Origin: a virus
Taxonomy: Duplodnaviria; Caudoviricetes
Virus record (IMG/VR): IMGVR_UViG_3300022555_000003
Coordinates: 32,001 to 96,000 of that record
Direction: 5' to 3' (one strand)
Length of the DNA: 64,000 bases
Of the stretch, positions 799 through 31,587 are shown in pieces (the stretch's first letter is position 1; each line of letters starts with the position of its first letter). The notes under the pieces were generated by a model that saw only the letters and a program-made list of their open reading frames with translations, did no database searches and had not been told where the DNA came from. Made by a program: the position numbers and the translations under genes.

Positions 799-1767
799 AT
801 GGCGACACTCGCAGAAATCCGCGCTAAACTTCAAGCGCAAGACAATAAATCAGACAAAAAAGGTTTTGGAGATAAGCAACTTTATCCGCATTGGAATATC
901 AATGAGAATGAATCGTGCTTACTAAGGTTTTTACCTGACAAGAATACAAAGAATTCATTCTTTTGGGTAGAACGTGCATTAATTAATCTTTCATTCCCAT
1001 CAGTAAAAGGTGCTTCTGAAGCAAAGACAGCATATGTAAAAGTTCCATGTATGGAAATGTGGGGAGAAACTTGCCCTGTACTAACAGAAGTTCGTCCTTG
1101 GTACAAGGATGCTTCATTAAAGGAACAAGCTGGTAAGTATTGGAAGAAGCGTACTTATTTGATGCAAGGGTTTGTACGTGAGAATCCAATTGAGGAAGAA
1201 ACACCTGAGAATCTAGTTAGACGGTTTATCATCAGCCCGCAGCTTTTTTCACTTATTAAGGCGGCACTACTTGATCCTGAATTAGAAGAATTACCAACAG
1301 ATTTTAATCACGGATTAGATTTCCGTATTAATAAGACAGCTGGTAAGGGTGGTTATTCTGATTACAATACAAGCAAATGGTCCAGAAAAGAATCAGCACT
1401 AACTGATAAAGAACGTGCAGCTATTGAACAATATGGATTATTTGATTTATCGGATGGTTTACCTAAGAAACCAAGTGACAAAGAAGTAAAGATCATTAAA
1501 GAAATGTTCGAAGCTTCTGTAAATGGCGATATGTATGATCCCGAAAAGTGGGGAGAGTATTTTAAGCCAGGTGGGTCATATGTTGCAGAAACAGTAGATA
1601 CATCGTCTGCTAAGGCAACAACTCACACAACTCACACAACTCAAGCAGCACCTGTTCAAGAAGACAGTGTTGCACCTGTGGTAACTCCTACTACAGCACC
1701 TAAGTCAACTCAAGCAACTGATATTCTTAAGATGATTAAAGAACGTCAAGCAAACGCAAAGAAGTAA
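799..1767 (+). CDS. ssb: Single-stranded DNA-binding protein, T4 gp32-like
   Basis: LRFLP, CP-V..., YWKKR motifs, DFRINK..GGYSDY..SKW, low-complexity C-terminal tail; lies next to uvsX/uvsY. Confidence 0.9.
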   Translation: MATLAEIRAKLQAQDNKSDKKGFGDKQLYPHWNINENESCLLRFLPDKNTKNSFFWVERALINLSFPSVKGASEAKTAYVKVPCMEMWGETCPVLTEVRPWYKDASLKEQAGKYWKKRTYLMQGFVRENPIEEETPENLVRRFIISPQLFSLIKAALLDPELEELPTDFNHGLDFRINKTAGKGGYSDYNTSKWSRKESALTDKERAAIEQYGLFDLSDGLPKKPSDKEVKIIKEMFEASVNGDMYDPEKWGEYFKPGGSYVAETVDTSSAKATTHTTHTTQAAPVQEDSVAPVVTPTTAPKSTQATDILKMIKERQANAKK

Positions 1768-1783
1768 TTAATAGCAAACATAG

Positions 1784-1812
1784 AATGGCGTATGAAACTT
1801 ATACGCCATTTT
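1784..1812 (+). terminator. Intrinsic terminator or stem-loop after ssb
   Basis: AATGGCGTAT-gaaactt-ATACGCCATT followed by TT. Confidence 0.7.
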
Positions 1813-1832
1813 CATATTAGGAGAATATAACT

Positions 1833-2939
1833 ATGGCTGGAAAGCCTTTTGGTGTAGATAGATTTAGACGTGAATTAACAAAAAGTATTGAAGGCCTTGG
1901 TATTGGTTTTCATGATCCAACAGATTGGATTTCTACTGGTAGTTTTGTATTAAATGAATTAATTTCTGGACACTTTGATAAAGGTGTGCCACTTGGTAAA
2001 GTAACAATCTTTGCAGGAAGACCAGCATCAGGAAAAAGTCTAATTGTTTCAGGTAATATTATCAAAAATGCTCAAGCACAAAATATTTTTGTGATCATGA
2101 TTGATACAGAAAATGCATTAGATGAAGATTGGCTTAAAAAGTTAGATGTAGATACAAGTGAAGGTAAATTACTTAAACTTAGTATGTCAATGATTGACGA
2201 TGTTGCTAAAACTATCAGTACTTTTATGACAGACTATAAAGCAACTAGCGAAGAAGACAGACCAAAAATTTTATTTGTTGTTGATAGTTTAGGTATGTTA
2301 ATGACGCCAACAGACGTTAAACAGTTTGAATCTGGCGACATGAAGGGCGATATGGGTAGAAAAGCCAAAGCATTAAAGGCACTAGTTACTAACTGTGTTA
2401 ATATGTTTGGTGCTTATAATGTAGGAATGGTATGTACAAATCATACTTATCCAAGCCAAGATCCATATAGTCCTGATGATATTGTATCAGGAGGAAATGG
2501 ATTTTTATTTGCAAGTTCGATTGTAGTTGCTACAAAACCACTTAAATTAAAAGAAGATGCTGAAGGTAATAAAGTACCCGATGTACTTGGAATCAGAGTT
2601 GGTTGTAAGGTAATGAAGACACGTTATAATAAGCCATTTGAAACATGTGAAATTAAAATTCCATGGGTTGGTGGTCTTGATCCATATTCGGGATTATTCG
2701 AATTATTTGAAAAGAAGAACCTAATCGAGAAAGAAGGCAACAGATATAAATATATTGATTTACAAGGTGATGAACATAAATATTATCGAAAAGAGTACCT
2801 AGTAAATACAGATTCAATTTTAGATTTGATTATGGGTGAGTATGCTGAGAAGAAAAAGCTTCTATCACCTACACAAGAAGACATAGTTGGAATTGATGAG
2901 TCTGTAATTGAAGAAAGCGAACCAACTGACGATGAGTAG
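1833..2939 (+). CDS. uvsX: RecA/UvsX-like recombinase
   Basis: Walker A AGRPASGKS, IDTENALD, Walker B FVVDSLG, GDMGRKAKAL, SGGNG motifs. Confidence 0.95.
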   Translation: MAGKPFGVDRFRRELTKSIEGLGIGFHDPTDWISTGSFVLNELISGHFDKGVPLGKVTIFAGRPASGKSLIVSGNIIKNAQAQNIFVIMIDTENALDEDWLKKLDVDTSEGKLLKLSMSMIDDVAKTISTFMTDYKATSEEDRPKILFVVDSLGMLMTPTDVKQFESGDMKGDMGRKAKALKALVTNCVNMFGAYNVGMVCTNHTYPSQDPYSPDDIVSGGNGFLFASSIVVATKPLKLKEDAEGNKVPDVLGIRVGCKVMKTRYNKPFETCEIKIPWVGGLDPYSGLFELFEKKNLIEKEGNRYKYIDLQGDEHKYYRKEYLVNTDSILDLIMGEYAEKKKLLSPTQEDIVGIDESVIEESEPTDDE

Positions 2940-2952
2940 GAGATTAACTTAA

Positions 2953-3198
2953 ATGACGGTGGACCCAATTGAAATTGCAGCTGAGTTATGGCGCAATGTT
3001 TTAGAATATGTTCCAATGCGAGACAGAGATGCCGCAGCTGAACAGTTTATAGTAGCATTGCGCGGCTTGAATTTTTCTGATGATGAACTTGATTCTTTAG
3101 CAGAACATGACCGGTATATTAATACGGCATTGATTCAAGATAATGAAGAAAACGATTTTTCAAACGATGATTTTGACGATTTAAACGACAACGAATAA
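2953..3198 (+). CDS. Hypothetical protein with acidic tail
   Basis: ORF with GGAG SD between uvsX and uvsY. Confidence 0.7.
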   Translation: MTVDPIEIAAELWRNVLEYVPMRDRDAAAEQFIVALRGLNFSDDELDSLAEHDRYINTALIQDNEENDFSNDDFDDLNDNE

Positions 3199-22817: not shown

Positions 22818-23891
22818 ATGAATACAAGTATTGAAGATACGGTAAATTTTCTATTATCTATGCGAATCACCACAACGTGGCATTGTGGTGACCCGCCACG
22901 ATTAAGTATTAAGGATAGAACAACATTAGAAAATATACGGTATAAAAGTGCTATTGGACTAACCACTAAACAACGAAATTATATATTGTTGATTATAAGT
23001 AAGTATTTACTACTTTTAAAAACTTTAGGATGGCCGGTTGATGATCTAATGGATCCAAATTGGACAACACCATTATTACCAGATATTGTAAGGACTAAAT
23101 ATCATATTGACTTTTCAAATGTCACCGATGAATTTATCATTTACATTCCGTATGATCAACAATTAGTGAAATATTTAAATTCGATTACTAATAGTAAAAA
23201 CTTTTTTGATTTGTTGATATTTGACAAACCTGCTAAAGTGTGGCGAGTGATGAATGGAGAGCAAGGCAAAAAGTTAATAAAATGGTTATTAAGAAATTAT
23301 AGAAGTTTTAGTTGTGACGAAGAAGTTACTGAGCAAATAAACAATATTGAAGTATTAACACCAACAGTTAAATTTTTAAATAATCAATGGATTCTAGATA
23401 ATGCAGCTCCATCATTACAAACAGTATTTGATGAAATTGTAACAAAAGAGTTAACGCCAGTTCAACAAGCATATGAAATAAGTTCGTGTTATGTTTCGTT
23501 TCATTTTTCTGCAAAGAACTATTTAAAAAATTGGCTAACCACGAATCAAGTTAACATATTATGTGAAGAAGATGTTATAATTAAATGTAGTGAAGTACAA
23601 GAACTCATTGACTTAACTCTCTTGATAAATAAGTGGCCTATATTGGTAATATATAATAAATTTGATAATGAATTAACGACAGCATTAGACACTGTAAATT
23701 GGCCAAAATATGAACTTGGTACTGTTATGAAGAAAAAAGATTGTGAAGAACCTTGCTTATTATTAGATAAGTGTAATAAACCTATTAAAGGTTCTGTCAA
23801 AGTTCCTTGGGTAGTAAGATACAAATCATCTGTTATTTTACAAAGTATTTTCAGCCGATATAATAAATTAGTTGTAGTGGAGAAAGATTAA
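22818..23891 (+). CDS. Hypothetical protein upstream of uvsW
   Basis: 357-aa ORF coupled to the helicase. Confidence 0.75.
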   Translation: MNTSIEDTVNFLLSMRITTTWHCGDPPRLSIKDRTTLENIRYKSAIGLTTKQRNYILLIISKYLLLLKTLGWPVDDLMDPNWTTPLLPDIVRTKYHIDFSNVTDEFIIYIPYDQQLVKYLNSITNSKNFFDLLIFDKPAKVWRVMNGEQGKKLIKWLLRNYRSFSCDEEVTEQINNIEVLTPTVKFLNNQWILDNAAPSLQTVFDEIVTKELTPVQQAYEISSCYVSFHFSAKNYLKNWLTTNQVNILCEEDVIIKCSEVQELIDLTLLINKWPILVIYNKFDNELTTALDTVNWPKYELGTVMKKKDCEEPCLLLDKCNKPIKGSVKVPWVVRYKSSVILQSIFSRYNKLVVVEKD

Positions 23892-25366
23892 TGCAAAAAT
23901 GTACGCTAACAATTCATGATGAAGTCAACTGTACATTTAGTGGTCTAGACTTGAAGTTACGAAATCAATTGGTTAAAGATTTCAAGCGGATGATTCCTGG
24001 CATGCAATATATTCCGTCAGTTAGATTAGGTCGTTGGGATGGTAAGAAGTTATTTTTTTCACTTGCTGGAAGTACTTTTATAAATCTGTTGGATGAAATT
24101 TTACCAATACTTGATAGGTATGAATATACTGTTGATGTCATTGACAATAGAATTAACAAACAACAGTTTGAATTTGAACTAGTTGATGAAAACAAGTATG
24201 CTCATTTAAATTGGCCAGTTGGTCATGAGAATGCAGGCCAACCAATTAAATTGAGAGATTATCAAGTTGATATGGTTAATACTTTTCTAAATAATCCACA
24301 ATCAATTTATTGTGCAGGAACTGGATCAGGTAAAACTTTGGCCACAGTGGCTATGTCACATAGTGTAGAAAAATATGGGCGAACAATTGTAATTGTTCCT
24401 AATAAAAGTTTGGTAACTCAAACTGAACGTGATTATAAATTATGCAAGCTTGATGTAGGGGTTTGGTTTGGAGATAGAAAAGAGTTTGGTCATACTCATA
24501 CAATTTGTACTTGGCAATCTTTAAACGTATTATTGAAGAAGAAGAAAAATCGACCAGTAGAAGAAGAATTGTTAGAAGGTATTTCAATTGATGACATGCT
24601 TAAAGATGTTGTTGCAGTAATTGGAGATGAGTGCCATTTATCGAAAGCTAATGTGCAAATTGAGTTATTTACTGGAGTTTTCGCTAATGTACCTATTAGA
24701 TGGGGATTAACTGGAACAATTCCAAAAGATGATCACGATTGGTGGTGTTTATTGTGTAGCATTGGTCCGTTGGTAGGAACTATTGCTGCATCAGAACTAC
24801 AAGAACAAGGTGTATTAAGTAATTGTCATGTTCATATTAAGCAATTAGTTGACTATGGTGATTATCAAAATTATCAAAATGAATTAAAATATCTAGTTGG
24901 AGATACTGATAGATTAACTTACATCTCGGGTTTAATTGAACAAATTTCAAAAACCGGAAATACATTAGTTTTAGTTGATCGAATTGAAACTGGAGAATTA
25001 TTAGAATCGCTAATTCCTAATTCTGTATTTTTAAGTGGGCGAGATAAAGTTTCAAAACGTAAAGTAGAATATGATTCAATTGAAGTAATAGATAATAAAA
25101 CATTGATAGCAACTTACCAAATAGCAGCAGTTGGTATTTCTATTGTTAGGCTTAATAACTTGGTTTTATTAGAAGCTGGAAAAAGTTTCACTAAAACTAT
25201 TCAAAGTATTGGAAGAGGTTTGCGAAAAGGTTTCGATAAAGACTTTGTGAATATTTATGATGTATCATCAACTTGTAAGTATTCAAAACGGCATTTAACT
25301 AAACGAAAAACATATTACAAGGAAGCAGAATATCCGTTCACTGTAGATAAAGTTACTTGGAAGTGA
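23891..25366 (+). CDS. uvsW: SF2 DNA helicase, UvsW-like
   Basis: LRDYQ, GTGSGKT, DECH, GLTGT, QSIGRGLR motifs. Confidence 0.92.
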   Translation: MQKCTLTIHDEVNCTFSGLDLKLRNQLVKDFKRMIPGMQYIPSVRLGRWDGKKLFFSLAGSTFINLLDEILPILDRYEYTVDVIDNRINKQQFEFELVDENKYAHLNWPVGHENAGQPIKLRDYQVDMVNTFLNNPQSIYCAGTGSGKTLATVAMSHSVEKYGRTIVIVPNKSLVTQTERDYKLCKLDVGVWFGDRKEFGHTHTICTWQSLNVLLKKKKNRPVEEELLEGISIDDMLKDVVAVIGDECHLSKANVQIELFTGVFANVPIRWGLTGTIPKDDHDWWCLLCSIGPLVGTIAASELQEQGVLSNCHVHIKQLVDYGDYQNYQNELKYLVGDTDRLTYISGLIEQISKTGNTLVLVDRIETGELLESLIPNSVFLSGRDKVSKRKVEYDSIEVIDNKTLIATYQIAAVGISIVRLNNLVLLEAGKSFTKTIQSIGRGLRKGFDKDFVNIYDVSSTCKYSKRHLTKRKTYYKEAEYPFTVDKVTWK

Positions 25367-25615: not shown

Positions 25616-26116
25616 ATGAGAATTCTTACTAACGAAAATAAATCAATTAACATAGATGCCTTACCAGAAGATGTAGATGATTTACGCTTCTGCGTACTTG
25701 ACAATAGTGACCCAAATGAATGTGATTATTTTTTTGTCCCACTAATCTTTTTAGAGAGTTTTATGACACCTGCTTTGGTTCTTAAACTCGGAAAATATAC
25801 AGTGGTAGCTCCACTAGATTGGCAAATTTTGATTGGTGAACCTGATCATGGTGAATTAGAAGTTGTGCCTTTGACTAGCATTAATGATAGGGGTTTCAAA
25901 GCGTTTGCTATAAATCCACTTAGCAGCTACAGGCCAGAATTTTTACCTATTGAGATTGTTGATGTCTTTACTGATTCGAGATGGTTTTTTCCAAAGTTAA
26001 GGAATGGTCAAATTTTGTGTGTGCCGTTAACTGATAAAGATAAATCACAATGTGTTTATTTTGTGAAAGATATTTCAAGAAATAACGAGATTGTTAAGTA
26101 TGCCAAAGCCTGGTAG
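25616..26116 (+). CDS. Hypothetical beta-rich protein
   Basis: 166-aa ORF after TTGATT-17-TATACT promoter. Confidence 0.75.
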   Translation: MRILTNENKSINIDALPEDVDDLRFCVLDNSDPNECDYFFVPLIFLESFMTPALVLKLGKYTVVAPLDWQILIGEPDHGELEVVPLTSINDRGFKAFAINPLSSYRPEFLPIEIVDVFTDSRWFFPKLRNGQILCVPLTDKDKSQCVYFVKDISRNNEIVKYAKAW

Positions 26117-26408
26117 TATAAATATTATCAAAAGATTAGAACAGATGGAAACCAGACCACTTCAAATTAAATATAATAATTATCAAAAAAAGTTCTTATG
26201 GTTTCCAACAGATATACAATGGCACAATATTCCTGTAATTTCTGGACAAATATTAAACATAGTTTCAAAGCATGTTCCCAAATATAAATGGCTCACAACA
26301 GTTTATAGGAGAGAAATTATATTAATCTACGAAGATGGCAATGTAGCTAAATTTTGGGAATATACAGACAATATTCTTGATATTATAAAGAGAGATTCTA
26401 TAAATTAA
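26091..26408 (+). CDS. Family D paralogue (start may be 26145)
   Basis: KFLWFP...KWLTTVYRR...EY..NILDII.RD. Confidence 0.7.
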   Translation: MLSMPKPGSINIIKRLEQMETRPLQIKYNNYQKKFLWFPTDIQWHNIPVISGQILNIVSKHVPKYKWLTTVYRREIILIYEDGNVAKFWEYTDNILDIIKRDSIN

Positions 26409-26657
26409 ATGAGTTCATGTGAATTTAGTCCTCTTCATGGTAAAGTATGTGGAAAGTGGGAAGAAGTATTTTTGTGGTTCCCAACTTGTTTTCCAAATCA
26501 CAAGCAAAGAAAAATAAACATATTCAATCTAAGATTTATATGGCTTAGAAAAGTATTTAGGAGATGGGTTAGATCAGAACATATTGATGGGTTGGCTTTC
26601 TTTAGGTATGAATATGCTGAATCTATATTAGATATCATTGAAAGAGATGCCAACTAA
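26409..26657 (+). CDS. Family D paralogue
   Basis: WEEVFLWFP...WLRKVFRR...EYAESILDIIERD. Confidence 0.7.
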   Translation: MSSCEFSPLHGKVCGKWEEVFLWFPTCFPNHKQRKINIFNLRFIWLRKVFRRWVRSEHIDGLAFFRYEYAESILDIIERDAN

Positions 26658-26925
26658 TAGAAAATATTTTTGTGGATTTAAAGGTATTGTGACAGAAAGT
26701 AAAGTATTATATGGAAGATGGGAAAATAAATTTTTGTGGATTCCCACTGATATCAACTGGTATGGATTAAACCACAATGCAAAAAGTAAATTTAGATGGC
26801 TTATAACAGTTTATAGAAGATCAATAGAACTTGAATATCCAGAAAGTGGTATCAATTATAAAACTAATGAATACGCAGAAAGCTTATTAGAAATTATTAA
26901 AAGAGATTATGAAAAAACAAGTTAA
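26647..26925 (+). CDS. Family D paralogue
   Basis: WENKFLWIP...WLITVYRR...EYAESLLEIIKRD. Confidence 0.7.
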   Translation: MPTNRKYFCGFKGIVTESKVLYGRWENKFLWIPTDINWYGLNHNAKSKFRWLITVYRRSIELEYPESGINYKTNEYAESLLEIIKRDYEKTS

Positions 26926-27379
26926 AAAAGTTGAGAATGAAATATCTCTTTCATCACAATTACGTGCCTTAGACGTTAAAGATAGATCATTCAGACTGAA
27001 CTTAACTGATGATCAAAAGAAGAAATTTTCTCCTTATCTAATGATGAGATATTCAGCTTCGTGTGAAGGTCCAGTTGATCTACAAACATATTACTTACTT
27101 GCAACAAATGAAAATGTCAATAAGAATTTCTTCGCTCCAGGAATCAATAAACATGCAGAATTACAATGGTTAATGTGTACAACAGTGAGTCCAGGTATGG
27201 GTGTTAAAAGACATTATTGGTTTAATAGTGGAAAGAAAATTGTCAAAAGTAAGTATGTAAAATTGGTAGCTGAAAAATTACCATCTTGGAAAATGGCCGA
27301 TATAGAACACTTTGTAGCTATTAACACTGAAAAAGATATTGACGAATGGTTACTTGACTTTGGTGATGAAAATGAATAA
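26909..27379 (+). CDS. Probable clamp-loader small subunit (T4 gp62-like)
   Basis: FSPYLMMRY..., HAELQWL...G.G..H.W pattern; replication context. Confidence 0.5.
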   Translation: MKKQVKKVENEISLSSQLRALDVKDRSFRLNLTDDQKKKFSPYLMMRYSASCEGPVDLQTYYLLATNENVNKNFFAPGINKHAELQWLMCTTVSPGMGVKRHYWFNSGKKIVKSKYVKLVAEKLPSWKMADIEHFVAINTEKDIDEWLLDFGDENE

Positions 27380-28037
27380 GTGTGATTTTTGTAAAAAAGA
27401 ATTCAAACGTGAATCTACTTTAGGTGCACATACATGTGAAGGACGTAGACGATTCTTAGATAGAAATACTGTTACAACTAAGTTAGCATTATATGCTTTT
27501 CAACAGTTTTATGAAACATATCATACTGGCAAAGAAAAAACCTGGGAAGAATTTGCTGACAGTAACTTTTACATTTCATTTATTAAATTTGCACGATACA
27601 TGATTGAAACAAGATGTGTAAATGTAAATGAGTACATCAAATTTGTTATAAAAAATAAGTACAAATTAGACAATTGGTCCAATGATGCTGTGTATGAAAT
27701 TTTTTTAATTAACTGGACAAGATCAGAACCAATTTGGGATGCTGTGTCTCGAAATATTGAAACATTAACAGAGTGGTCAGAAGAAACAAACAATAATTTG
27801 AATGAATATTTTACAAAAGCATCTGATGCTAAAATAATTAGCGAAATTGTAAAAGCAAAAATAACAGGTTGGATATTATTTGGAAGTGATACAGGTGTTA
27901 ATTGGTTAGATACGTTGTTACCTGAACAGCTTCAATCTATTTATAAGTGGATCGATCCAGAAATTTGGAATAGAAAGATGGATGCTAATCCTGAATTTGA
28001 ATCAGTAAAATCAATGCTCAATGAATTACATTTATGA
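27372..28037 (+). CDS. Hypothetical protein with N-terminal Zn finger
   Basis: CDFC..F..E.TL..HTC. Confidence 0.75.
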   Translation: MNKCDFCKKEFKRESTLGAHTCEGRRRFLDRNTVTTKLALYAFQQFYETYHTGKEKTWEEFADSNFYISFIKFARYMIETRCVNVNEYIKFVIKNKYKLDNWSNDAVYEIFLINWTRSEPIWDAVSRNIETLTEWSEETNNNLNEYFTKASDAKIISEIVKAKITGWILFGSDTGVNWLDTLLPEQLQSIYKWIDPEIWNRKMDANPEFESVKSMLNELHL

Positions 28038-28333: not shown

Positions 28334-28918
28334 ATGAAAAAAATATCTAGTGACATAGATTTAGATTTTGCTGATAGAAATGAGGCATTGAAATTTCTTG
28401 AGCACACACCTGCTAGTCAATATACAAACAAAGAACTAGTGCGTCATAATTCTGGAATATATGTTACATTAATACCGCAAGATGAAATACTTGGTATTAG
28501 TAGTTTTGAATATAAAAAAGCTGAAGAGTTAGGTTACATAAAACTAGACTTTTTAAATAATCATGTTTATTCAATGATTAATAGTAATGAGGAATTAGAT
28601 AAGCTAATAGAAATTGAACCACCGTGGCGTAAATTAGCTGATGAAGAATTTGTTAAGCAGATTATTCATATCAATAATTATTTCAATCTTATAAAGAAGT
28701 TAAAAGAACCAATTGATTCAATTGAAAAAATGGCTATGTTTTTAGCTATTATTCGACCAGCAAAAAAACATTTAATAGGTTTACCGTGGGGTGAAGTTAG
28801 AAAAACTGTGTGGGATAAGTCAGTTGATGGAACTTACGGGTTCAAAAAGCCTCATGCTATTTCTTATGCGACTCTTATTGGAGTACAAATGGTACTACTA
28901 AGTGGGCCGCTTCATTAG
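28334..28918 (+). CDS. Minimal DNA polymerase III alpha (DnaE)-like protein
   Basis: SDIDLDF, RHNSGIY, GYIKLDFL, AIIRPAK and YGFKKPHAISYA occur in DnaE order within 194 aa. Confidence 0.8.
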   Translation: MKKISSDIDLDFADRNEALKFLEHTPASQYTNKELVRHNSGIYVTLIPQDEILGISSFEYKKAEELGYIKLDFLNNHVYSMINSNEELDKLIEIEPPWRKLADEEFVKQIIHINNYFNLIKKLKEPIDSIEKMAMFLAIIRPAKKHLIGLPWGEVRKTVWDKSVDGTYGFKKPHAISYATLIGVQMVLLSGPLH

Positions 28919-29281
28919 AATAATTGATCTACGTTTACTTTTAGTTTTTGCTAGTTCTGCTAAACTTATAATGGGACCATGCATAATAATAGTATCTTTG
29001 GTGTTGAATACTTTTATATAACGCCTAAATATATCCCATTCTTTTCCTAAGAATATGTTAATTGGGATCTTTCTATTACTCTCCCAATACCATGAATCTC
29101 CTAGTTTTAAAAATAGTTTTCGCTCCTCGACATTCTTAATATCTCCAAAATTATATAAGCTAGTAACAAATGAATCTTGATTTTGTATAATTCCTATAAA
29201 TTCTGAATCACCATAACTGAGAATTGTTATGAACGGATATTTGTTCAATAATTGTTCGAAAACAACTGATGTATTGTTCAT
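28898..29281 (-). CDS. Hypothetical protein
   Basis: 127-aa ORF, WYWESNRKIPINIFL; TAAATA motif upstream. Confidence 0.75.
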   Translation of the reverse strand: MNNTSVVFEQLLNKYPFITILSYGDSEFIGIIQNQDSFVTSLYNFGDIKNVEERKLFLKLGDSWYWESNRKIPINIFLGKEWDIFRRYIKVFNTKDTIIMHGPIISLAELAKTKSKRRSIILMKRPT

Positions 29282-29340: not shown

Positions 29341-29862
29341 ATGGAAACAATAAGAATTTTTGTCTACGATCAAATTTTAAATTTGCAAATCGCTGATGAC
29401 AATACTTTAAATATCGAGGACAGAATTGTGTATACAAAACCTATAAATTTATTCAAAGGGATCGATAATGTAATAAAAGTACTTATTAAGAATTCAGATC
29501 AAAAAGTTGTTGATATTACTACTTTAACTTTTTATGCTGAGTTAGTAAAGTCACCACAACAAGATTTCGTAGGATCATTTACTTTAGTTACTACATCGGC
29601 TCTATTAGGCGAAGCCAAACTTACCATACCAGCATATATCCTCAATCCTCAAGAAATTGGCAATTACTATATCTTAATAAAATATTCAAGTGGTGGGAAT
29701 GATATTCCTGCATTTGCTGATGACAACTATCAAATCGCAATTCCATCTTACTTGTCATTAGGTTATAGAGTACCTGGTGATGTATATGATTTAAGTGATA
29801 ATTTAGATCTTGGTAGCATTCCAGAACTTGAAGATGAAATTAGAGACCTAGGAGCATTATAA
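29341..29862 (+). CDS. Probable virion protein (baseplate upper protein/BppU-like beta sandwich)
   Basis: GATAAATA 13 nt before ATG; lies ahead of fibre genes. Confidence 0.5.
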   Translation: METIRIFVYDQILNLQIADDNTLNIEDRIVYTKPINLFKGIDNVIKVLIKNSDQKVVDITTLTFYAELVKSPQQDFVGSFTLVTTSALLGEAKLTIPAYILNPQEIGNYYILIKYSSGGNDIPAFADDNYQIAIPSYLSLGYRVPGDVYDLSDNLDLGSIPELEDEIRDLGAL

Positions 29863-31587
29863 ATGGCTAAGAGATTACAAATACGTGGTGGTACAAATGC
29901 ACAAAATAATGCTTTTACTGGAGCAGAACGTGAGTTATCAGTAGATACAGATAATTGGCAGATACGAATACATGATGGTGTTACTGTTGGCGGAAATGCC
30001 GCAGCGGGATTTGTTGGCTCAACTGGGCCATTGGGTTTAACTGGCTCAACTGGGCCAATAGGATTACCTGGAGCAACCGGCGCTGGAGCTACTGGTTTAA
30101 CTGGTTCAACTGGAGCAACTGGATCTATCGGACTAACCGGAGCAACTGGTTCTGGTGCAACAGGGTTTGATGGAGCAACTGGTCCATTGGGTTTAACTGG
30201 CTCAACTGGTCCAATAGGATTACCTGGAGCAACAGGCATCGGAGCAACTGGATTAACTGGAGCTATTGGATCAATTGGACTAGATGGTGCAACTGGCGCT
30301 GGAGCTACTGGAGCAACTGGTCCAATAGGATTACCTGGAGCAACAGGCATCGGCGCAACTGGTATTGGAGCTACTGGATTAACTGGTTTAACTGGTAACG
30401 TAGGAGCTACAGGTGTTGGATCTACAGGTTTCTCGGGTGCAACTGGTGTTATTGGAAATGCTGGATCAACTGGGATAATTGGTTTAATTGGCTCTACTGG
30501 AATAATTGGTTTAACTGGCTCTACTGGTTTAATTGGTGCAACTGGTTCTGGAGCAACGGGTATCACTGGATCAACTGGAGCTATTGGATTAAAGGGTGCT
30601 ACTGGTTCTGGAGCTACTGGAGCTACTGGCTTAACTGGATTAACTGGTAATGTTGGAGCTACAGGTCCAATTGGTGCAACTGGTACTGAAGGTGCTACTG
30701 GCAACCGAGGAGCTACAGGTATTACTGGAGCTACTGGTTCTGGAGCAACAGGTATTACTGGATCTACTGGACTTACTGGTTCTACTGGACTTACTGGATC
30801 TACTGGTTCTGGAGCAACAGGTATTACTGGATCAACTGGAGCTATTGGATTAAAGGGTGCTACTGGTTCTGGAGCTACTGGAGCTACTGGCTTAACTGGA
30901 TTAACTGGTAATGTTGGAGCTACAGGCGCTGGAGCAACAGGTATTACTGGATCGACTGGGGCAACAGGTATATTTGGTTCTACAGGTCCAATTGGTTCTA
31001 CAGGTCCAATAGGAGCAACTGGACTTTTTGGAGCAACTGGACTTTTTGGAGCAACTGGACTTTTTGGAGCAACTGGACCCGGTGCAACCGGACCAGCTGG
31101 AGCAACAGGTATTACTGGATCAACAGGACCATTAGCTGCTAATTATGGATCGTATATCGGATTAGCAACGCAAACAAATATGGCTGGTGCAACTGGTGCC
31201 AATGTTGTTACATTAGATTCATCGCTTATTCGGTCTGGGGTTACAATTGAAAGTACATCACATATAAAAGTGTTAAGCAATGGAATTTATAATTTACAAT
31301 TTTCTTTCCAGCTATTTACTACAAGTATTAATAGTCCTATTAGTATTTGGTTAAGTAAAGGTGGAGTTAATGTTCTTGCATCTAATACTGTTATTACAGT
31401 ACCTGGTAATTCAACTAATAGTTTTGCGGCTTGGAATTTTATGATTCCATTATTAGCAAATGAGTATGTAGAACTATATTGGAATTCCACTGATACTGGT
31501 ATGACAATATTACATTCAGCAGCAGGAACAAATCCAACAATACCCGAAGCACCAGCTGTTATAGTTACAATTAATCAAGTTGCATAA
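29863..31587 (+). CDS. Collagen-like (G-X-T) fibre protein with Mtd/hyaluronidase-type N-terminus
   Basis: LQIRGGT...[19 protein letters not shown]; long GATG repeats; C-terminal beta domain ([11 protein letters not shown]). Confidence 0.85.

Follow-up and report, generated by a model that had tools for sequence, protein, structure and literature searches.

The stretch of viral DNA analysed here, referred to as the window, comprises 64,000 nucleotides (G000:C1:32001-96000) of a 242-kb virus record whose completeness is estimated at 74%. The window's list of open reading frames (ORFs) includes an intact ORF of 194 amino acids (aa) at 28334-28918 on the plus strand (G000:C1:60334-60918), and its product is quite likely the catalytic C-terminal subunit of a minimal C-family polymerase in T4-related large phages, an enzyme of two proteins that has no thumb and is similar to DNA polymerase III's alpha subunit (Pol III alpha, or DnaE). 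This protein, designated the C-half and encoded at 28334..28918 (plus strand), supplies the palm's second part together with fingers in reduced form, an assignment made through the family phrog_11778, a structure model, VIA-align and hhalign, while the first part of the palm is encoded by a distant gene of the same genome, designated the N-half. Homology, retained active-site residues, complementarity of the two proteins, their co-occurrence and one fused form were all observed. The family itself is already known from sequence analysis, as a split minimal Pol III alpha of the group 2.2 jumbo phages was described from sequence by Iyer, Anantharaman, Krishnan, Burroughs and Aravind (Viruses, 2021; PMC7824862).

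The first line of evidence comes from the active-site motifs, which were mapped onto the E. coli Pol III alpha sequence taken from NC_000913, with segments of the ORF aligned locally against shuffled controls. A preliminary description, made from the DNA letters, had listed five polymerase motifs in a given order, and all five proved to be collinear with the E. coli protein. Local alignment placed DIDLDF on E. coli 401-406, residues 55-83 on 538-566, residues 128-142 (DSIEKMAMFLAIIRP) on 626-640 and residues 168-189 on 754-774, four segments that follow one another as they do in Pol III alpha. The segments containing KLDFL and YGFKKPH scored 5.3 and 4.7 standard deviations, respectively, over the shuffled controls, and those of DIDLDF and IRP lie at chance level when taken singly.

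All five motifs lie on the plus strand. The motif DIDLDF (residues 7-12; 28352..28369) corresponds to E. coli DFDVDF 401-406, with D7 equivalent to D401, D9 to D403 and D11 to D405. Through hhalign, HNSG (residues 38-41; 28445..28456) was matched to E. coli HAGG (H511-G514), the residues R37-H38-N39-S40-G41 being paired with K510-H511-A512-G513-G514, and K70-L71-D72 with K553-F554-D555. The HNSG strand corresponds to the strand that follows the thumb in DnaE, and a tight beta-hairpin (residues 25-43) takes the place of the thumb here. Both hhalign and local alignment equate KLDFL (residues 70-74; 28541..28555) with KFDFL 553-557, so that K70 is K553 and D72 is D555. In the fingers, IRPAK (residues 140-144; 28751..28765) corresponds to the E. 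coli motif FRPGP 638-642, with IRP on FRP 638-640, and YGFKKPHAISYA (residues 168-179; 28835..28870) to E. coli 754-765, within which YGFKKPH matches YGFNKSH 754-760.

For Pol III alpha of E. coli, the active-site residues are D401, D403 and D555, and H760, which is invariant in Pol III alpha, has been proposed as the steric gate against ribonucleotides (PMC8485763). The catalytic aspartates of the ORF are thus D7, D9 and D72, all three kept as had been claimed, and H174 is the equivalent of the steric gate. The three metal-binding acidic residues of a Pol-beta-like palm are therefore present, D7, D9 and D72 aligning to D401, D403 and D555, and so are the fingers, reduced to about 120 residues, with the RP and YGFxKxH motifs and the steric-gate histidine. 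The GS-motif loop (GPGRGS) is missing from this chain; its counterpart, GIGRGSS, sits on the separate 169-aa protein. The GS loop is supplied in trans, except in one fused relative (P0261).

The fold and profile comparisons lead to the same family. A profile of 29 C-half homologues was compared through hhalign with a profile of nine sequences (E. coli DnaE and eight phage DnaE cores), which gave a probability of 96% and an E value of 3.8e-9; the nine-sequence profile was needed, as against the single E. coli sequence a 26-residue match was all that was obtained, with a probability of 24%. In PHROGs, the ORF matches phrog_11778, annotated as 'DNA polymerase', with an E value of 7e-59, and partially matches the full-length DnaE family phrog_405 (E 1.7e-6). 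An AlphaFold2 model calculated from the 29-homologue alignment reached a mean predicted local distance difference test score (pLDDT) of 90.1 and a predicted template modelling score (pTM) of 0.78. The best 13 Foldseek matches to this model in the PDB are all C-family enzymes, namely Pol III alpha of Thermus, M. tuberculosis and E. coli, and PolC, the best E value being 6.5e-4.

The structures used for comparison were E. coli 2HNH and 5FKW, Thermus 2HPI and 3E0D, M. tuberculosis 5LEW, and PolC 3F2B. With VIA-align, the top match was M. tuberculosis DnaE1 415-807, with a Z score of 8.5, a root-mean-square deviation of 5.0 and 191 aligned residues, followed by Thermus 458-837 (Z 8.4) and PolC 967-1295 (Z 8.3), with E. 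coli 397-780 at Z 7.2. The best 11 entries are all C-family, with Z from 8.5 to 5.4, and the next one, an unrelated entry, has a Z of 3.2. Between 185 and 191 of the 194 residues were aligned with C-family polymerases, at an identity to E. coli DnaE below 20%. The superposition on DnaE proposed in the preliminary description thus returned a fold that matches C-family polymerases only. Searches with single sequences and family models gave a different picture: the Pfam scan of the ORF found no relevant family, only a chance-level BRINP match; PF07733 reached 7 and 4.2 bits over the ORF in the genome scan, below its threshold of 23.9 bits; and neither phmmer with the ORF nor hmmsearch with the family profile reached DnaE among the PDB sequences, returning chance matches to coiled-coil and repeat proteins only.

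The C-half belongs to a large and well conserved family. With a word-based search, 1399 relatives with lengths of 106-340 aa were found, of which the 120 listed almost all have about 190-200 aa, and an exhaustive search gave 351 clusters at 50% identity (E <= 0.001). At least 595 IMG/VR contigs encode a relative of the C-half, and among the hosts are Alpha- and Gammaproteobacteria as well as uncultured lineages. Conservation was evaluated in an alignment of 97 sequences, which comprised the ORF and 96 full-length representatives of the 50%-identity clusters. In this alignment D7 and D9 are each kept in 98%, D11 in 96%, H38 and G41 each in 97%, K70 and D72 each in 100%, R141 in 97%, P142 in 98%, K171 in 92% and H174 in 93%. 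The loss of catalytic aspartates among homologues, which would have spoken against an enzyme, was thus not seen, the aspartates being kept at 96-100%. The Nei-Gojobori ratio of nonsynonymous to synonymous substitution rates (dN/dS), also suggested as a check on the homologues, came to 0.10 as the median of 29 pairs whose dS is 0.1-1.5.

The preliminary description had also stated that no other DnaE fragments lie nearby. This is correct within the window, but a complementary fragment is present elsewhere in the same genome, where a search of the kind it had proposed detected, at C1:218341-218565 on the minus strand, a PF07733 match that exceeds the gathering threshold. The corresponding gene, the N-half (P0121), encodes 169 aa at about G000:C1:218350-218856 (L001:1510-2016), on the minus strand and about 158 kb from the C-half, and the protein ends in ...LGIGRGSSVSSFVLYKLGVHKINSIKWELNYKDFLK. 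It scores 39-40 bits against PF07733 (cut-off 23.9) and belongs to the family phrog_11127 (E 3e-37). Alignment of its family profile covers E. coli 323-392, up to ERFL, and hhalign extends over E. coli 317-392 with a probability of 96.9%. The model of the N-half, with a pLDDT of 86.8, has a fold that matches C-family polymerases only, residues 61-169 corresponding to E. coli 273-393 with Z of about 10-12, and the first 60 residues or so are family-specific, without a DnaE counterpart in the fold alignment.

The N-half bears the GRGSS nucleotide-binding motif and the first part of the palm. Since it stops at E. coli 392-393 and the C-half starts at about 397, the two complement each other as parts of a single palm. 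The split point is constant: EFLK or EFLR forms the C terminus in each of the 30 N-half homologues aligned, and the C-half homologues all start a few residues before DxDxD. Further along the N-half strand come two small genes, a GroES-like gene and a clamp-loader gene, in the same order as in phage PA5oct. Between the N-half and the GroES-like gene lies a membrane-like protein with DUF3307 (PF11750) at L001:906-1238 on the minus strand. The clamp-loader gene is represented by a fragment, L001:3-497 on the minus strand (G000:C1 about 216.8-217.3 kb), which adjoins the GroES-like gene and turns intein-like after its Walker B motif LLDEC.

The two halves occur together in phage genomes. By using tblastn on a phage collection, the C-half was found in 96 records and the N-half in 118, the additional records for the latter being full-length DnaE from phages of Bacillus, Cellulophaga and Clostridium. 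Counted by genus, with nearly equal results, the C-half and N-half appear in 34 and 33 records for Escherichia, 11 and 11 for Pseudomonas, 11 and 10 for Klebsiella, 8 and 8 for Salmonella, and 8 and 8 for Erwinia. Among the records listed, both halves are carried by the same phages, namely RaK2, K64-1, 121Q-like phages, GAP32, PA5oct, Atu_ph07, Phosso, XaC1 and RsoM2USA; in tblastn, the C-half is 37-50% and the N-half 27-43% identical to cultured phages. Alishewanella phage vB_AspM_Slicko01 (OQ508956.1), whose genome of 141 kb is well below the jumbo size limit, also carries both, 11 kb apart (L090, L091) and annotated as hypothetical proteins. Four of five large IMG/VR contigs with a C-half carry exactly one N-half, 42-114 kb away, and the fifth, the one without, is a fragment of 21% completeness. 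Close linkage was not observed, as none of 80 IMG/VR loci, with flanks of up to 10 kb on each side, has an N-half within 10 kb of the C-half.

A natural fusion provides a further link between the halves. The word-based search for longer, fused relatives returned none, and the exhaustive search, over 1.84 billion representatives, returned a single one, the 375-aa protein P0261. In this protein, the N-half is matched by residues 82-180, with 37% identity and E 2e-20, and the C-half by residues 190-372, with 44% identity, the two parts being joined by a linker of about 10 residues in an uninterrupted ORF (L006:1066-2193) on a European Nucleotide Archive (ENA) metagenome contig of 2415 bases with 25% G+C; the genes around it are unrelated to the window neighbours. 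Binding of the halves is also supported by a predicted complex of N-half and C-half, which reached an ipSAE of 0.89, the best of three controls having 0.00. The runs share at least 95% of contacts with a partner pLDDT of at least 89, and N-half residues 130-143, with the GRGSS loop, are placed in contact with C-half residues 1-13, the DxD strand. Of 80 solved complexes 58 attained the mark applied to ipSAE, and of 110 mismatched pairs 2 did, a calibration that is rough here, own alignments having been used. Of the readings offered in the preliminary description, one subunit of a split polymerase is thus the one supported by the complementary N-half, the co-occurrence and the natural fusion.

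Compared with DnaE, the C-half is markedly reduced. According to the alignment and the model, it has 42 residues (13-54) where E. coli has 131 (407-537), and a two-strand hairpin (25-31 and 34-43) stands at the insertion point of the DnaE thumb, which reportedly spans about 433-510 in E. coli; a thumb is thus absent. From the RP motif to YGF there are 25 residues instead of the 113 of E. coli, a loss of about 88 fingers residues, and the ORF ends at the equivalent of E. coli 780 or so, whereas in E. coli the fingers continue as far as about 911, leaving some two thirds of the fingers absent. The domains PHP (PF02811), DNA_pol3_finger (PF17657) and HHH_6 (PF14579) have no match in the whole 242-kb record, which is about 74% complete, while the control genomes were matched, and this negative result does not extend to the OB domain, for which no separate search was made.

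The gene of the C-half closes a conserved block of genes on the plus strand. At the head of the block is a superfamily 2 (SF2) DNA helicase (23891..25366; phrog_16, E 2e-60; Pfam ResIII, DEAD and Helicase_C), which is found 2-7 kb upstream in 52 of 80 IMG/VR loci, and further members are a phrog_11279 gene (25616-26116) and a phrog_11758 gene (26909-27379). Directly upstream of the C-half lies a gene for a 232-aa protein (27339..28037; phrog_11058, E 4e-55) with a CxxC...HxC zinc-finger-like motif, for which the Pfam scan gave no family, and this gene occupies the same place on the same strand in 74 of the 80 loci. At the other end, a convergent gene for a 127-aa protein (28898..29281, minus strand; phrog_11637, E 7e-34) overlaps the polymerase gene, 3' end on 3' end; it is present on the opposite strand in 77 of the 80 loci and directly downstream in about 70. 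Within the block, three tandem small ORFs (105, 82 and 95 aa; 26091-26925, plus strand) resemble paralogues, each with FLW(F/I)PT, W...L..V(Y/F)RR and a C-terminal tail like (Y/E)(A/T)(E/D)..L(D/E)IIKRD. Downstream of the C-half, the content of the window changes to genes for a collagen-like tail fibre and for glycosyltransferases. The tail-fibre protein (574 aa; 29863-31587, plus strand) is built from G-x-T/G-A-T triplet repeats and has a globular domain at the C terminus, and the collagen-like repeat probably gives rise, as a by-product, to the 313-aa antisense ORF at 29763-30704.

In PA5oct, the upstream and downstream neighbours are arranged alike, and a primase subunit is encoded 1.4 kb downstream of the C-half. 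In the PA5oct record, neither half, EST35_0288 for the N-half and EST35_0220 for the C-half, carries the mark for virion proteins detected by electrospray ionization tandem mass spectrometry (ESI-MS/MS), and the main text of the PA5oct omics paper mentions neither gene, nor any DNA polymerase. For the window itself, a search for RNA sequencing runs that contain it listed none. In Slicko01, the C-half lies between genes for the small subunit of replication factor C (RFC) and for a primase/helicase, and the phrog_11637-type downstream gene is also there. A family B polymerase, which the preliminary description had suggested looking for, was found in the genome of the window through PF00136 (C1:179878-181339; E 6e-16 and 3e-11). 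It is laid out as two adjacent ORFs of 550 and 403 aa, 25 bases apart (L005:189-1400 and 1426-3078, minus strand; G000:C1 about 179.5-182.4 kb), with PF00136 positions 17-135 in the first ORF and 141-346 in the second.

From these elements a working scheme can be proposed. Because of the co-occurrence, the natural fusion and the complex model, we infer that the two proteins associate, with the GRGSS loop packing on the DxD strand and thereby rebuilding a Pol-beta-like nucleotidyltransferase active site. In such a heterodimer, the GS loop and the helices of the N-half would hold the triphosphate, D7, D9 and D72 would hold two metals, and the reduced fingers with H174 would close over the sugar of the incoming nucleotide. 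More tentatively, the heterodimer may add deoxynucleotides to a primer on a DNA template, their use being suggested by the conserved steric-gate histidine. As the thumb, the clamp-binding region and the proofreading domain are missing, such synthesis might be short, distributive and of low processivity, in keeping with a possible accessory role beside the family B replicase, be it in repair, in gap filling or in one specialised step of replication.

Several points weigh against the interpretation as a two-protein polymerase. The homology of the C-half alone rests on profile-profile and fold comparison, with HMMER and Pfam missing DnaE, and the fusion is known from a single metagenomic contig of 2.4 kb. 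The score of the complex may mirror the solved single-chain DnaE structures, and would then speak for a DnaE-like fit of the two models and not for binding in the cell. With the thumb and much of the fingers lost, the binding of template and primer and the contacts to the triphosphate may differ from those of DnaE. The dN/dS is rough, since dS is near saturation, most values being around 1. In the literature searched, no biochemical study or measured activity was found.

A more specific version of this interpretation can also be formulated, although the odds are clearly against it. It holds that N-half and C-half form the smallest natural C-family polymerase, with about 363 aa and without a thumb, which would leave the copying of bulk DNA aside and carry out a specialised step over short patches, for instance the filling of gaps or the extension of primers in recombination-dependent replication, and that the adjoining 232-aa and 127-aa proteins may be subunits which replace the DNA-holding parts.

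Also unlikely is that the protein, by itself or paired with the N-half, has been repurposed as a nucleotidyltransferase other than a templated DNA polymerase, for instance an untemplated terminal transferase, an enzyme for making or tailing primers, or a maker of nucleotide signals. Many nucleotidyltransferases of the Pol-beta fold are not templated polymerases, the phage already owns a family B replicase, and the pair lacks the DNA-gripping thumb, the greater part of the fingers, and the HhH and clamp-binding regions. However, the residues that were kept are those that face the incoming deoxynucleoside triphosphate and the primer end in DnaE, including H174, RPx and KxH; the closest relatives in sequence and fold are exclusively replicative C-family polymerases; and the gene neighbourhoods consist of replication genes. 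Repurposing, which had been raised in the preliminary description as the other option, is therefore improbable and not needed to account for the data.

It is far less probable that the ORF encodes a catalytically idle fragment, which would imitate a portion of the host DnaE and so mislead or inhibit the host replisome as a decoy. The protein's small size and its likeness to an inner portion of the host replicase speak for this, but a decoy would have no need of active-site residues, which are conserved at 92-100% over at least 96 clusters. Neither the DnaE regions for binding tau and the beta clamp nor the PHP domain, to which epsilon binds, are present. The low identity to E. coli DnaE, below 20%, and the spread of hosts noted above argue in the same direction. 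Finally, a recent functionless deletion remnant of a full-length phage dnaE, for which small size alone speaks, can be rejected on family-wide conservation, given the steady length of about 190 aa among the 1399 homologues and over at least 351 clusters, start and end points that are identical throughout the family, the dN/dS of about 0.1, neighbours kept in 74-77 of 80 loci and the absence of PHP, finger or HhH Pfam matches from the genome.

The two-protein polymerase can now be set beside known systems. Iyer and others reached the same interpretation for the split phage proteins, whose families correspond to PHROGs 11127 and 11778 (PMC7824862). As in their system, there are two stand-alone proteins from distant genes, an N-terminal unit that binds the nucleoside triphosphate and a C-terminal unit that binds magnesium and template; a family B polymerase is present, no PHP, finger or HhH domain of Pol III was matched in the genome, and the clade (RaK2, 121Q, GAP32, PA5oct, Atu_ph07) and the families phrog_11778 and phrog_11127 are the same. 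Nothing essential differs, and the pair is a further member of that group, 37-50% identical to the proteins of cultured phages. RefSeq and several submitters label both genes as 'DNA polymerase' or 'DNA polymerase III alpha'. As far as can be told, what is apparently added to the text of Iyer and others is the fusion, the occurrence in a 141-kb non-jumbo phage, the residue map with H174 equivalent to H760, and the fixed gene block.

In common with DnaE and PolC, the pair has the Pol-beta-like palm, the GS loop, the three aspartates with the lysine, and the fingers motifs RPx and YGFxKxH, and its fold spans E. coli 273-393 (N-half) and 397-780 (C-half). It differs from DnaE in being split into two chains with a total of about 363 aa, in comparison with about 1160 aa, in having a beta-hairpin turn for the thumb and fingers of about 120 residues, in lacking PHP, HhH/beta-binding and tau-binding domains, and in the roughly 60 N-terminal residues of the N-half that have no DnaE counterpart. 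The full-length phage DnaE, for example that of actinophages, Pbunavirus and Bacillus phage Taylor (phrog_405), is likewise a phage-encoded C-family core with the same invariant motifs. However, it is a single chain of about 950-1160 aa with PHP and with complete thumb and fingers, and it serves as the replicase, whereas the pair described here is a minimal form, divided over two chains, in a genome that also has a family B polymerase.

Another example of a reduced viral enzyme is Pol X of African swine fever virus, which consists of the nucleotidyltransferase fold and the fingers subdomain only and is used in repair (PMC11646218). This viral protein, likewise a drastically reduced Pol-beta fold, offers an analogy for how such a minimal enzyme could work. 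It differs from the pair in belonging to family X instead of family C and in being a single chain, and it gave no sequence or fold match here.

If the interpretation as a two-protein C-family polymerase is true, some 363 residues in two chains would represent the most reduced form known of the bacterial replicase fold, harboured by phages that replicate through a family B polymerase. If the pair is active, it would define the minimal parts for C-family catalysis and could furnish a small scaffold for engineering. Its activity would also bear on the proposal that the bacterial replicase grew from such a minimal core (Iyer et al., 2021; PMC7824862). And should the short-patch version be true, the pair would be a compact new polymerase architecture, as well as a test case for the origin of the C-family core from a minimal two-part enzyme.

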